Below, piece by piece: positions 39,472 through 53,620 of a DNA stretch of 64,000 bases. The notes under the pieces are model-generated. The model was not told the DNA's origin, made no database searches, and worked only from the letters and a program-made list of their open reading frames with translations. Numbering within the stretch: the stretch's first letter is position 1; each line of letters opens with the position of its first letter. A program made the position numbers and the translations under genes. The DNA comes from an uncultured delta proteobacterium (GTDB taxonomy: Bacteria > Desulfobacterota > Binatia > UBA9968): contig CAWDPO010000001.1 in assembly GCA_963804165.1 (NCBI GenBank), forward strand, positions 64,001 through 128,000. Reading direction: 5' to 3'.

Positions 39472-39487
39472 GCAACATGGGTGCCAA
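39472..39487 (-). promoter_or_regulatory. Sigma54 promoter
   Basis: TTGGCAC-CCATG-TTGC on the minus strand. Confidence 0.85.
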
Positions 39488-39582
39488 ACGTCCCGTGTGA
39501 AAAATGGCTCCGCAACTCGTGATAATTTGACAAGTTACGTCGGTGGAATGCGATTGTCCTAATGTGATGCCGAAAGTCTTGT

Positions 39583-39614
39583 GACGACCTGTCGGCACGC
39601 GCCGACATTATGGC
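39583..39614. promoter_or_regulatory. Tandem palindromic enhancer (UAS), copy 1
   Basis: GACGACCTGTCGGC-ACGC-GCCGACATTATGGC, 97 bp upstream of the -24 element. Confidence 0.7.
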
Positions 39615-39781
39615 TTGTCACGCGGGAGTAGAGGCTAATTGTTTGGCAGGAGCGAGACGGCGGGCGGACGCTGCGAGCGCTCCAAAGCCATCCGCTTTCG
39701 GCTAGGCGAAAGCAAAAAAGTAACGGAGAAGTTGGACTGAGGCGGCCTCCGCCATCGGCAATGCACTAACCCGCTGAACGA

Positions 39782-39853
39782 CCCTCGGCCTGAGCCGAGG
39801 GGGCTTCAAGTTTGTCGTTGACTTTAGTTCCCGTCATTCCCGCGTACGCGGGC
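39782..39853. repeat. Hairpin plus REP fragment
   Basis: CCCTCGGC-CTGA-GCCGAGGG and CGTCATTCCCGCGTACGCGGG. Confidence 0.55.
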
Positions 39854-40502
39854 TCTTTCTTGTTTTTATTCAATTCAAATCGACCCTGAATATTGGCCGG
39901 AGTTTATCCTGAGACTGATACGGATGTTGAGATCGAGACCAAGGCCTCGCAAAAGCGTACAACGGAGCAATCGTGTGTTGTAAGGAGGAGACCTTTAGTT
40001 ATAGCGCAAGCGCGATGCCCTCCGACGTAATTCAGACGAGCTAAGAAATGCTTGATAACCGGGATGTCAAGGAAACGCGCTGATGGAGCAAAACCAGTTG
40101 CTGAAAGACGCTGCCGAACTGCCGGAAGGTGACTCAATCTGGGCTTTAGTTTGCCTGAGCGATCGCACTCATTCAGTTCAGTTGCGATCGACGCAAACAA
40201 AACTCAGCTAAGAAAGAGAACCGAATCAATAGAAATTAGTCCCAGCCATTGATCACCAATCTTTTCATGAATAGCTTCGACACGCCTTGACATGAGCAAA
40301 ACGTGCGCTATGGGTGAATTAAGGATCACAAAAAAGCCTGCATTAATTTCCACGTGTAATTCTTCGCGTCTAGTTTTGCAAAAACTTCGTCCGGCATTCC
40401 AGGTCTGGCCGGCTTGTTTCGATCGAAAGCTTTAATCTCCTGATCGCAACAACCGCTGTGGTTTTGCGTGGTATAAAAACTTTTTCTTGGGGGAGGACTC
40501 TC

Positions 40503-40766
40503 ATGCGACTAAGAGAACACCCGAAAATCCAGTGGTCGCCGAGGTGGTCAGAGCGGGCTGAAAACTCGCTTGGGGGAGAAGACGGGATTTTAAAAGACGT
40601 GGATTTTGACGGACCGAGCAAGCTGCTTCTAAGCAACGAAATGGACGGGCAAATTTATTCTGCCGAACTATATTGCTTCAACACGGCTTTCACCCGCAGG
40701 CTCCACGAAAAACTCATGCCCATGTTGGGGCGACCAATACGAGAAGTGGGGGAACTCGATTTATAG
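40503..40766 (+). CDS. Hypothetical protein
   Basis: RBS GGAGG; 87 aa ORF MRLREHPKI..W. Confidence 0.6.
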   Translation: MRLREHPKIQWSPRWSERAENSLGGEDGILKDVDFDGPSKLLLSNEMDGQIYSAELYCFNTAFTRRLHEKLMPMLGRPIREVGELDL

Positions 40767-40799
40767 GATTATAGGATGACTCTAAAAAAGGAGGACATC

Positions 40800-50524: not shown

Positions 50525-50587
50525 ATGACATCGTCCTTTCTTCATAGTCCCGTTGTTTGAAAGACTGCGCAAGGGACGACGCTCCTT

Positions 50588-51322
50588 TCACACCTCACAC
50601 CACGCCGCGGCCAGCTTGCACGTTTGTCCGGTGATCCAACGGGCGGCGTCACTGGCGAGAAATAAGGCCACCTCGGAGATGTCTTCCGGAGCACCGACGC
50701 AATTGAAGGGCGACAAACTCGCGCCGTAATCGCGGTACTCATCGGGCATGTCCGTATCGGTAAATCCCGGCGAGAGAACGTTTACGGTGACATTGCGCGG
50801 ACCCAACCCGAGCGACAGCGAGCGAGCGAACTGCTCGATGGCCCCTTTACTGCCGAGATAGAGCGACATGTTGGCAAAATGCATTTTCGTACCGCCGGTC
50901 GAAACGACGACAATGTGACCGCCCTCGCGCACACGGCGGGCGGCCTCTTGCAACGTGAAAAAGACCCCTCTCGTATTGATGTCGAAAATGTAATCGTAAT
51001 CCGCCTCGGTGTTTTCGATCAGCGGTTTTTCAATATGGACGCCGGCGTTGGCGATGACGATATCGAGACCGCCCATCGCCTTTTCAGCTTCGCTGAATAA
51101 GCGCCGCACCTCCGCAGGTCTGGAAACATCAGCGTGAATCGCTATGGCGTTGCCGCCCTTCGTCGAGATCGACATTACGACCTCATGGGCCAGTTGTTCG
51201 TTACGCGCGTAGTTGATAACGACCGACGCACCATCTGCAGCAAGCCGTTCAGCGATTGCCCGGCCGATGCCACGTGAACCGCCGGTAATGAGCGCCGTTT
51301 TTCCCTCGAGTGACATAGACAT
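50588..51322 (-). CDS. SDR family oxidoreductase
   Basis: TGGSRGIG, ANAG, YLGSK and PGFTDT motifs; the last residues are probably frameshifted. Confidence 0.92.
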   Translation of the reverse strand: MSMSLEGKTALITGGSRGIGRAIAERLAADGASVVINYARNEQLAHEVVMSISTKGGNAIAIHADVSRPAEVRRLFSEAEKAMGGLDIVIANAGVHIEKPLIENTEADYDYIFDINTRGVFFTLQEAARRVREGGHIVVVSTGGTKMHFANMSLYLGSKGAIEQFARSLSLGLGPRNVTVNVLSPGFTDTDMPDEYRDYGASLSPFNCVGAPEDISEVALFLASDAARWITGQTCKLAAAWCEV

Positions 51323-51412
51323 GTTCTCTTCCGGTTAAATTTTTATTTCAAACACCGCTGGGGGACAGATCACGGATGCCGCGGTGGCCTCCCATGTTGT
51401 CCCAATAGTTTA

Positions 51413-51428
51413 ACAAGGTGCGTGCCAG
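51413..51428 (-). promoter_or_regulatory. Sigma54 promoter (TTGT variant at -12)
   Basis: CTGGCAC-GCACC-TTGT on the minus strand. Confidence 0.65.
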
Positions 51429-51526
51429 GCCCTGTGGTGTTCGAAGGAAGCCTATAAATGCTTCGCACAGACGCACTTAGACAGCTCCTGATTAGGGTTT
51501 GAAAACGAACGTGATGAAGAAAGCCT

Positions 51527-51558
51527 GCCGACTTATCGGCAAGCGCCGAAATAGTGGC
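51527..51558. promoter_or_regulatory. Tandem palindromic enhancer (UAS), copy 4
   Basis: GCCGACTTATCGGC-AAGC-GCCGAAATAGTGGC, 100 bp upstream of the -24 element and abutting the activator stop codon. Confidence 0.75.
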
Positions 51559-51559
51559 G

Positions 51560-53620
51560 CTAGTTGGTGCGAGCGATGCCTAACTTTTTCATTCTCGACT
51601 GCAGCGTGGTTCGCTTTATGCCGAGCCGGACCGCGGCGCCCGTAGGTCCGCCGATGGTCCAGTTCGTTTCGGAGAGGGCGCGCATGATGTGGTCTCGTTC
51701 GGCGTGCTCCAGCGTCGCGAGACCGTTTGAAGATTCGAACACTGGGGTTTTCGTTCTTTGCTTTAACTCCGCCAGAGGAAACTGGAGCTCCGTACCGCGG
51801 GATAGAATCACCGCGCGCTCGATGAAGTTTTCGAGCTCGCGCACATTGCCGGGCCAGTGATATTCCGTCAGGGCGCTCATTGCCTTTGTCGGTATCGTAT
51901 CTATCGGCTTTTTCATCCGGCGCGCGTGCTTCTGCGCGAAATACCGCACCAGCAGCGGAATATCTTGCCTCCGCTCCCGTAGCGTCGGCAGGACGATCGG
52001 AAAAACGTTGAGCCGGTAGTAGAGGTCCCTGCGAAATTGATTCTCGGCCACCTTTTGCGCCAGATCGGCGTTGGTGGCGGCGACTAAACGAACGTCTACC
52101 CGGATCGTCCGCGCGCTACCGAGACGTTCGAATTCCTGCTCTTGCAGCACGCGGAGAAGCTTGGGCTGGAGGTCGAGGGAGATGTCGCCGACTTCGTCGA
52201 GGAAGAGCGTGCCTCGGTGCGCGAGCTCGAATCGCCCTTGGCGCTGGGCAATAGCCCCAGTAAAGGCACCCTTTTCGTGTCCGAATAGCTCGCTTTCGAG
52301 CAGGCCCGTCGGAATCGCAGCGCAGTTTACCTTGACCAGCGTGCGCTCGCGTCGGGCGCTCAAATGATGTATGGCGCGCGCGATCAATTCCTTGCCGGTG
52401 CCGGTCTCGCCCAAGATGAGAATCGTCGAATCGGTGGGCGCCACGGTCTGCAATTCTTTAAGAATCCCCTTCAACACGGGACTTTCACCGACGATCTCTT
52501 CAAAGTTGTACTCGGTGCGAATCTCATCTTGCAGGTAGAGCTTTTCTTCGCTCAGTTGATTGGCCCGCTCCACTTCCCTGCGATAGGCGAGCGAATTTTC
52601 GACCGCGATGGCGATCTGATTGGCGACGTTTCGCAGCAGTTCGGCATCGCGTTCCGGAAAATTCTCCTCGTGCAGACTGGCCACAACGAGCGTACCCAAA
52701 GGTCGGCCGTGAGAAATCAGGGGCAAGACGTAGCCCGACTTCAGCCCTTCGGCGAGGATACGCCGGGCAATGTCGGAGCCAAATTGTTCAATGTCGCTAC
52801 GGGTGATGAAAACCGGCCGACGCGTGGTCAAGGCCCGACCGGTCGGTGTCCCCTCGATGGGCACCGAAAGACCCTCTTGAATAAGCCCCTTGCTGATCGG
52901 GAAGTCTAAGGCGTGAATTTGCAGCCGCTGTGTTTCCGGATCGAAAAGAGACAGGCTGGCGTATTCATGTGGCACCAAGCGTCGCAGCGAGCCTGACACG
53001 GCGTTCAGCAACTCGTGCAAATCGAGCACCGAGACGATGGTATTATTTACTTCAAGCAGTATATTCAGACGGTCGCGTTCTTCCTTGAGTTGCTGCTGCA
53101 CCGATTGGGCTTCGGCAAAATTAAGCGCGTTATCCAAAGCGACCGCGACTTGCCGAGCTACCTGCTGCAGGAAGATGACGTCAATCTCAGAATAGGCTCC
53201 TTCAAGTCGGCTGCCGAAAGCCAGGGCTCCGAGTTTCCTGAGCGCTGTGGTCACTGGAACGACGCAGAGCGACGATACCCCGCGGCTGCATAGCCACTGC
53301 GCCACCTCAGGAAACCGCGTCTCGCTGCTAAGCTTTGCCGCCACCCACGGTTTTTGCGTATCCCGCACCCAACCGCCCGGGGTTTCCATCGGACAATCGC
53401 CGGGCGGACAAGTATACGCCGGGTCCGGCGTCTCCAGAACATGGGATTTCATCACCTGCCGCGTCGGTTCGTAGAGAATCAGATTGGCAAAGTCGAACTG
53501 CACGACATGATGCAGCCGCGGCGCAAGGTCTTTGAAGAGCTGGTCGAGATCGCGTTGCGACGCGATTCTTTCGGAAATTTCGAGCAAAGTTTGGAATTGG
53601 CTGTGCAAAAGATCCATCAT
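51560..53620 (-). CDS. FhlA-type sigma54 enhancer-binding protein (GAF-GAF-AAA-HTH)
   Basis: Two GAF domains; [23 protein letters not shown] and [23 protein letters not shown]. Confidence 0.95.

Follow-up and report, generated by a model that had tools for sequence, protein, structure and literature searches.

Background

The closest described relatives of the system treated here are activators with GAF domains: the Escherichia coli proteins FhlA and HyfR, whose enhancers are at hyc, fdhF and hyf, PexR of Myxococcus xanthus, and NorR of E. coli. Our subject lies in a stretch of 64,000 nucleotides, called the window below, from an uncultured delta proteobacterium of the Binatia (assembly GCA_963804165.1, contig CAWDPO010000001.1, forward-strand positions 64,001 to 128,000). 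Here a gene for a GAF-GAF activator (51560-53620) is accompanied by four sigma-54 promoters, each with the same 32-bp tandem palindrome upstream. A preliminary description of the window took these for a self-contained regulon concerned with thiol, electrophile or redox stress. We argue that the 32-mer, together with a third half-site, probably serves the FhlA-like activator next to it as upstream activating sequence, and that this activator would switch the four units and at least four more in the rest of the genome.

FhlA and HyfR have the same GAF-GAF-AAA+-HTH layout as the window activator, which is 45% and 44% identical to them. Their recognition helix, KRTTL(L/Q)SRM, is nearly identical to its own, and the ends of the sites are alike as well (G-x-C ... 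G-x-C). However, the FhlA matrix given in the accessible part of its source, TG(T/A)C-N6-G(A/T)CA (PMC7658346), has a spacer of N6, whereas the window site has 8 bases between its ends and its palindromes stand in fixed tandem. A matrix made from the window sites does not pick out the E. coli FhlA enhancer regions. The targets of FhlA are those of formate hydrogenlyase; the targets here are reductases, efflux and small proteins. FhlA is the best NCBIfam family of the activator, at 565.4 bits, which is below the cut-off of 830. As judged from sequence, the window activator is FhlA-like but not FhlA: family score, site spacing and targets all fail. The FhlA regulon also contains a small gene, hycA, annotated as a regulator of FhlA, and this may be a parallel to the mini-STAS gene discussed below.

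PexR, as described in the accessible text of PMC12754779, resembles the window system in being a GAF-regulated sigma-54 activator of thiol-redox defence genes with three tandem palindromes. Its site, CACCG-n6-CGGTG, has the core CCG-n6-CGG in common with the window site, but the outer bases differ. According to the same text it has one GAF domain, with the metal ligands H102, H120, C122 and D140, in 531 aa, and acts on ahpCD, katB and ccp, whereas the window activator has two GAF domains in 686 aa and other targets. PexR also represses, a role not seen for the window activator. NorR is a GAF-type detoxification activator that, in the part of PMC2831303 available, needs three enhancer sites for an active ATPase, which is a precedent for a third half-site. 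NorR has, however, a single GAF domain and nitric-oxide targets, and the window activator scores 379 where the NorR family cut-off is 476.

In the literature searched, mostly outside subscription journals, neither the motif nor the regulator nor a pairing of a STAS protein with a bacterial enhancer-binding protein (bEBP) is described. Nitrospira, Acidobacteria, Binatia and STAS all go unmentioned in the accessible part of a 2025 survey of sigma-54 regulons (PMC12316311). It is well supported that the circuit is real, undescribed in the literature searched and ordinary in kind, working as FhlA, NorR and PexR do.

Four sites and four promoters

The 32-mers are present exactly as the preliminary description gave them, starting at 39583, 43205, 46927 and 51527 of the plus strand. 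Their distances of 97, 98, 106 and 100 bp hold when measured to the first T of each minus-strand -24/-12 promoter (39486, 43107, 46821 and 51427). The promoter of unit 4 ends in TTGT rather than TTGC. It had also been said that the other sigma-54 promoters of the window lack the motif, and this stands: among twelve candidates four carry it, at 32-49 bits, and the remaining eight score -12.9 or less.

When matrices were built with each site left out in turn, the site held out was equalled or beaten at just 4-7 positions in the whole 7.5 Mb of the genome, a count that includes the training sites; hence the four-site motif is not a product of chance. A matrix of 45 sites from other genomes, not fully independent because these were chosen via the window matrix, puts the four within the top 7 of the genome. 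For every one of its top 8 sites a sigma-54 promoter is matched, at 12.7 bits or better, 86-106 bp away; 0.33% of positions have such a match by chance. With a matrix of 16 Nitrospirota sites, in which no window bases were used, the four rank 3, 5, 8 and 10 among 13 distinct genome sites of at least 15 bits.

Consensus and spacing were derived from 71 promoter-linked sites. On the promoter strand the consensus reads GCC(G/A)A(T/C)ATTTCGGC-(G/A)(C)(C/G)T-GCCGATAN(A/G)TCG(G/T)C. Nine of its G, C and T columns are invariant or nearly so, and each palindrome has the form G(C/A/T)CGA-N4-TCG(G/T)C. A third half-site, TCG(G/T)C, which the preliminary description missed, lies 9 bp past the 32-mer toward the promoter. 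It occurs at an offset of 8-10 bp in 57 of the 71 sites (36 exact), compared with 12 (1-2 exact) at two control offsets, and it falls outside the segment on which the motif was trained. That the activator uses it is, in our opinion, somewhat better than an even bet. Distances from enhancer to promoter span 85-113 bp and form clusters at 85-89 (10 sites), 96-102 (43) and 110-113 bp (13), with five sites between. Exact helical phasing was considered for this spacing and rejected, since another period fits better (see below). A strict pattern of motif plus promoter had 0 matches in 300 genomes of the phylum, a weak negative control because the same pattern recovers just 2 of 7 sites in the genome of the window itself.

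The activator and its claim to the site

By sequence criteria the product of 51560-53620 is a bEBP: it has an AAA+ domain (PF00158, E 1.4e-71) with GAFTGA and a C-terminal HTH of the Fis type (PF02954), dyad sites stand in the expected range of about 80-150 bp upstream of -24/-12 promoters, and rpoN, the gene for sigma-54, is found on contig C38. The motifs of the AAA+ domain are intact: Walker A, GETGTGKE, stands at 404, GAFTGA at 451 and Walker B, LFLDE, at 472. The recognition helix KRTTLQS is at residue 669. Orthologue alignments begin at the same start. Among the best 80 of 462 relatives, the closest (79-85%) come from records that bear the title Candidatus Binatia or Deltaproteobacteria, and further ones are from Nitrospirota, Acidobacteriota and Gammaproteobacteria. 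Eighty activator loci were surveyed.

The proposal that this activator reads the four sites is backed by position across phyla, by co-occurrence in genomes and by covariation with the recognition helix. Of the 27 sites that lie at most 300 bp behind activator genes, 16 start 1-7 bp past the stop codon, as in the window, and they do so across phyla. Among 36 genomes of the same family, 14 have both activator and motif, three the activator only, three the motif only and 16 neither (Fisher p 1.4e-4, which is overstated because the genomes are kin). Neither activator nor motif was found in 24 other genomes of the order, and a reversed motif pattern had zero matches in the same survey of 60 genomes. 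In two of the three genomes with the activator only, sites at matrix level adjoin the activator gene.

The site is present in 39 of 57 loci whose activator has a KRTTL-type helix, in 1 of 10 with NRTTLN and in 0 of 9 with PxSTLR; four loci were unclassed. A search neutral to sequence, for a 14-4-14 frame plus promoter with shuffles as control, gave 41 sites in KRTTL loci and 12 matches (11 physical sites, in 6 of 11 loci) in NRTTLN loci, where shuffles gave 0-1. The NRTTLN sites read GAC...GTC: column 2 is A in 12/12 of them vs 3/41 in KRTTL loci, and column 31 is T in 12/12 vs 9/41. Nine KRTTL matches in a control with a 5-bp gap are the same motif with a wider gap. Three PTSTLRNR loci have a common 15-4-15 variant. 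In a paralogue class whose helix is NPSTLRSR, two copies of GCGAWATWTCGC 19 bp apart stand ahead of 12/12 STAS promoters, and in five cases a third, weaker copy follows 13 bp further on. Since the site follows the activator gene into Nitrospirota and Acidobacteriota and varies with the recognition helix, it is very probably this activator's enhancer. Going by these sequences, we are fairly confident that the 51560-53620 product would bind and activate all four units.

If so, a widespread FhlA-like activator, found in abundant soil bacteria and in nitrite oxidisers, could be given a binding site and a regulon from sequence. An orthologue (NITMOv2_0015) is present in a cultured organism, Nitrospira moscoviensis, so the circuit is open to test. 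Four helix variants paired with four site variants amount to a recognition code for one HTH family. It is this code and the STAS pairing that raise the circuit above routine; the wiring itself is textbook.

Pyrinomonadaceae activators with a PxSTLRNR helix (loci L128, L133 and L146; L141 and L144) have tandem palindromes of their own. One form is 15-4-15 at 84-85 bp from a promoter; the other is GACGC-N8-GCGTC, twice, ahead of a STAS gene.

Points against, and other readings

Several observations weigh against this assignment or what we build on it. Three genomes (G012, G020 and G030; 94, 67 and 88% complete, in 310-710 contigs) have motif and targets, and no KRTTL activator was found in them. 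At 20 bits, 18 of the 57 KRTTL loci are without the site, four of these having the 5-bp-gap form. In a quick tree, without the NPSTLRSR class, each helix class is a single clade, so the covariation of helix and site represents about three evolutionary events. The best period of the spacing clusters is 12-13 bp, not 10.5 bp, and matches to the consensus of integration host factor are at chance level in the spacers (6/71 vs 4.3 in shuffles). Redox enzymes are a minority among the neighbours of the activator in the 80 loci (short-chain dehydrogenase/reductase (SDR) 16, thioredoxin 8, GFA 3, AhpD 2). The Cys71/Cys76 pair of GAF1 is mostly missing in 24 more distant orthologues. During stable growth of N. 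moscoviensis, in the accessible data of PMC6606698, transcription is recorded for the nemA, SDR and RND genes that the motif precedes (means 163, 214, 588 and 459, vs 340 for the activator). Those rows hold no inducing condition, and this expression neither shows nor excludes induction. Finally, a receiver-domain (REC) activator on another contig of the same genome (C39:12682-14088) has the same KRTTL helix and 64% identity over AAA+/HTH, and six of the 13 sites from the Nitrospirota matrix are on that contig.

This last point invites the suggestion that the four sites are read mainly by the C39 activator. The units would then respond to a two-component signal, and the GAF-GAF gene beside them would be incidental or merely share the sites. 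The C39 gene stands beside sensor kinases and an RND pump, and genome G025 retains the paralogue together with a C39-type site. Yet its close relatives occur in 2 of 60 genomes, whereas 17 of 36 family genomes have the motif, and it is the GAF-GAF gene that the site abuts across phyla. Since its relatives are so few, the C39 paralogue cannot explain the family-wide pattern, and we consider it improbable as the main reader; it may share sites in this genome. Another possibility is that the palindromes are RNA hairpins, terminators or repetitive-extragenic-palindrome-like repeats, which stand upstream of sigma-54 promoters by chance. A hairpin resembling a terminator, T-rich tail included, is indeed scored in the enhancer 4 copy (51544-51523), and three of the four window copies follow a gene on the same strand. 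This idea is hardly credible when the promoter distance is fixed at 85-113 bp in 71 sites, the palindrome bases are invariant rather than interchangeable pairs, and the sequence is tied to helix class. Scans of the window for sigma-70 promoters and terminators were at or below chance, with fewer terminators than in shuffles (17 vs 23).

The DNA wiring could also be as we propose and the signal be formate or another C1 product, the units forming a response to overflow of formaldehyde or formate. FhlA is the best family match of the activator, with 45% identity over 577 residues, and a GFA-family gene is among the targets. The Binatota are described in the accessible part of PMC8262859 as formaldehyde-making methylotrophs. 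Against this, none of the targets scanned is a formate dehydrogenase or hydrogenase gene, GFA is near the activator in just 3 of the 80 loci, and the GAF1 domain of the activator is strongly unlike that of FhlA and has conserved residues of its own. We regard a C1 signal as unlikely.

Mechanism and signal

Ring assembly and looping are established knowledge of bEBPs. On the enhancer reading, dimers of the activator would dock on the two palindromes about 100 bp upstream of the promoter. The GAF domains would sense a signal and thereby license assembly of the ring, and three docking points, two palindromes and the half-site, may help the activator to build its ATPase ring. The ring would then loop to the sigma-54 polymerase and open the promoter. 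Carbonyl and enoate reductases, thiol proteins, efflux, small proteins and the mini-STAS gene would be switched on.

As to the signal, a predicted structure shows two ordinary GAF folds, and a fold search with the GAF pair gave generic tandem-GAF matches (PDE5, phytochromes, 3k2n) and no ligand clue. Cys71 and Cys76 of GAF1 are both present in 17 of 18 orthologues of at least 70% identity, and His60 is retained in 41 of 42. Our tentative suggestion, to which we give slightly less than an even chance, is a reactive aldehyde or other electrophile, or thiol stress, read in GAF1 where Binatia orthologues keep the Cys pair. Formate or another C1 product gets a much smaller share, and signals of other kinds the remainder. 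The response to electrophile and thiol stress is usually run by sigma-70 repressors. If the suggestion is correct, a sigma-54 route would be added to it.

The mini-STAS protein

The most constant neighbour of the activator is a gene for a short STAS protein, present in 40 of the 80 loci (a count favoured over those of the enzymes, the STAS search having been iterated and the enzyme searches single-pass). The window copy belongs to unit 1. Its predicted structure has a STAS fold (TM 0.72-0.77 to RsbV and SpoIIAA), and its sequence matches TM1442 and SpoIIAA and is below both Pfam STAS cut-offs. SpoIIAA and RsbV thus have the same fold, but the mini-STAS is shorter, mostly without the serine, and apparently tied to sigma-54 activators, not to an anti-sigma kinase gene. 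None of the genes in the four units, to which this search was limited, is an anti-sigma kinase gene. Alignment to SpoIIAA-type chains, with their phosphorylation site, places the acceptor after the conserved Asp: there the serine is absent in 27 of 37 members and present in 10, and the window protein has Gln. Cys76, near the C-terminus, is found in 26 of 37.

Of the 17 activator genomes, 16 have a strong match to the protein, as do all three motif-only genomes and none of the 16 with neither (one of these, G036, has an intermediate match), and 25 of 39 mini-STAS genes have a 14-4-14 enhancer at most 1.3 kb upstream. The family is a large one (2109 matches). Twelve weak matches form a second subfamily, of which 11 adjoin a paralogous activator; all 12 genes have a sigma-54 promoter with the two GCGAWATWTCGC copies 19 bp apart mentioned above. 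In this paralogous module (L199-L210, e.g. G015:C5:92372-94018 and G014:C14:404693-407503) the NPSTLRSR GAF-type activator is divergent from the STAS gene.

HycA, NifL and PspA act directly on their activators. A speculative suggestion can be made along these lines. The FhlA-like activators of Binatia, Nitrospirota and Acidobacteriota might be a family of two-part switches, each class using its own variant of the enhancer to transcribe a mini-STAS of its own that has Cys and cannot be phosphorylated, and the STAS protein feeding back directly on the activator, possibly via thiols. We suggest this because the gene is so frequent in the loci and so often behind the cognate enhancer, and because the same genomes have a second set of activator, STAS and enhancer; we still find it doubtful. 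A complex prediction of activator (72-row alignment) and mini-STAS (37 rows) gave 0.00 against a mark of 0.32, uninformative either way. If true, what STAS proteins control would here be a sigma-54 activator and not an anti-sigma kinase, and such a feedback partner would be a new way to control enhancer-binding proteins.

Sites beyond the window

The regulon is not self-contained, as had been claimed. At least four more promoter-linked sites are elsewhere in the genome (Table 1), weaker motif sites are present on C39 and C8, and the C39 activator has the same helix. The C39 island (G000:C39:11776-42272; L165, L166) comprises the receiver-domain activator, two kinases, two more response regulators and the RND pump. 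It has six motif-like sites, of GTCGA/TCGAC flavour.

Proposed target units

Entire units recur behind the same enhancer in relatives. In other phyla, where 39 cluster representatives of 115 open reading frames (ORFs) were scanned, the targets include old-yellow-enzyme, glutathione transferase, glyoxalase, DedA-rhodanese, RND pumps and glycosyltransferases. The earlier idea of a thiol, electrophile or redox system holds in part. The enzyme classes fit it, but they vary between loci, the commonest neighbour is the mini-STAS gene, and RND pumps and small exported proteins are found too. Several window targets are broken (the aldo-keto reductase, the split SDR and the two remnants in unit 2), and this damage weakens the redox reading further. 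In N. moscoviensis, genes for DoxX, pirin, a FrnE-like DsbA and two VOC proteins stand just upstream of the activator (L130:6890-9899); they have no enhancer and are weakly transcribed.

The small proteins at 46578-46763 and about 50347-50520 are paralogues of 53-61 aa; each of the 14 copies listed has two cysteines ten residues apart. Atlas searches gave no family name for the 61-aa protein or for the 140-aa protein at 37689-38111. The 60-aa ORF at 37443-37625 may represent a family of small proteins or else a non-coding element that is conserved.

Table 1. Positions of the activator, enhancers, promoters and proposed target genes in the window, and of further sites in the genome
Feature	Position	Strand	Remarks
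Activator gene	51560..53620	-	686 aa, GAF-GAF-AAA+-HTH; Pfam GAF x2, Sigma54_activat, HTH_8
Enhancer 1	39569..39614	-	palindromes 39583-39614; exact third half-site 39569-39573
Sigma-54 promoter, unit 1	39472..39486	-	12.7 bits; 97 bp from enhancer 1
Unit 1	37443..39426	-	best conserved of the four units
58-aa protein	39426-39250	-	unit 1
137-aa protein	39168-38755	-	unit 1; probably exported
Mini-STAS	38462..38737	-	unit 1; 91 aa; Cys76; no phospho-acceptor serine
Thioredoxin	38465-38124	-	unit 1; TIGR01068 above cut-off
140-aa protein	38111-37689	-	unit 1; unnamed family; at least 11 relatives in genome; Atlas clusters mostly Binatota
60-aa Trp-rich ORF	37625-37443	-	unit 1; first 37 residues recur at 6 other places in genome
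Enhancer 2	43195..43236	-	palindromes 43205-43236; third half-site 43195-43199, 4 bp nearer than usual
Sigma-54 promoter, unit 2	43093..43107	-	14.5 bits; 98 bp from enhancer 2
Unit 2	41949..43016	-	
Membrane protein remnant	43016-42726	-	unit 2
AhpD/CMD protein	42684-42223	-	unit 2; CAYC motif; TIGR00778 above cut-off
Pyridoxamine-oxidase-like fragment	42194-41949	-	unit 2
Enhancer 3	46913..46958	-	palindromes 46927-46958; exact third half-site 46913-46917
Sigma-54 promoter, unit 3	46807..46821	-	14.1 bits; 106 bp from enhancer 3
Unit 3	45590..46763	-	
61-aa protein	46763-46578	-	unit 3; conserved Cys pair
140-aa membrane protein	46502-46080	-	unit 3
GFA-family protein	45997-45590	-	unit 3; Pfam
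Enhancer 4	51513..51558	-	two 14-bp palindromes 51527-51558, 1 bp past activator stop codon; third half-site 51513-51517, one mismatch
Sigma-54 promoter, unit 4	51413..51427	-	13.8 bits; 100 bp from enhancer 4
Unit 4	47041..51322	-	operon extent as suggested by gene spacing
SDR	51322-50588	-	unit 4; Pfam
Small Cys-pair protein	about 50520-50347	-	unit 4; ATG seemingly one base out of frame
CurA-type enoate reductase	50217-49204	-	unit 4; NF058644 500 bits, cut-off 440
Aldo-keto reductase	49144-48710	-	unit 4; Pfam; without about 160 internal residues vs 331-aa orthologues
SDR	48646-47866	-	unit 4; Pfam; split over two frames
NAD-dependent epimerase/NmrA-like protein	47793-47041	-	unit 4; Pfam
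Fifth sigma-54 promoter	45162..45176	-	inside span, without enhancer; 16.6 bits; best motif score -26.7
Extra site	C1:56500		MOSC protein, non-haem haloperoxidase-like hydrolase, Zn alcohol dehydrogenase
Extra site	C6:136982		aldo-keto reductase, Zn dehydrogenase
Extra site	C39:25157		RND pump
Extra site	C17:91173		small exported protein

Other features of the window

The fifth promoter in Table 1 precedes genes for an S-adenosylmethionine (SAM) methyltransferase (45139-44450) and an alpha/beta hydrolase (44401-43298), and a promoter match is also found ahead of the methyltransferase orthologue in genome G030. This suggests a promoter driven by another activator, or from a distance. Back-to-back sigma-54 matches at 55769-55783 (minus strand, 18.2 bits) and 56261-56276 (plus strand, 13.2 bits) stand before short unannotated ORFs, and the motif is absent there. 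Two very large sensor kinases (28424-35693), one with five GAF domains and one of Cache-PAS-GAF type, adjoin the regulon. In enhancer 4, the second palindrome and its T-rich tail (51523-51544) resemble an intrinsic terminator of the activator gene, and this piece of DNA might be put to double use.

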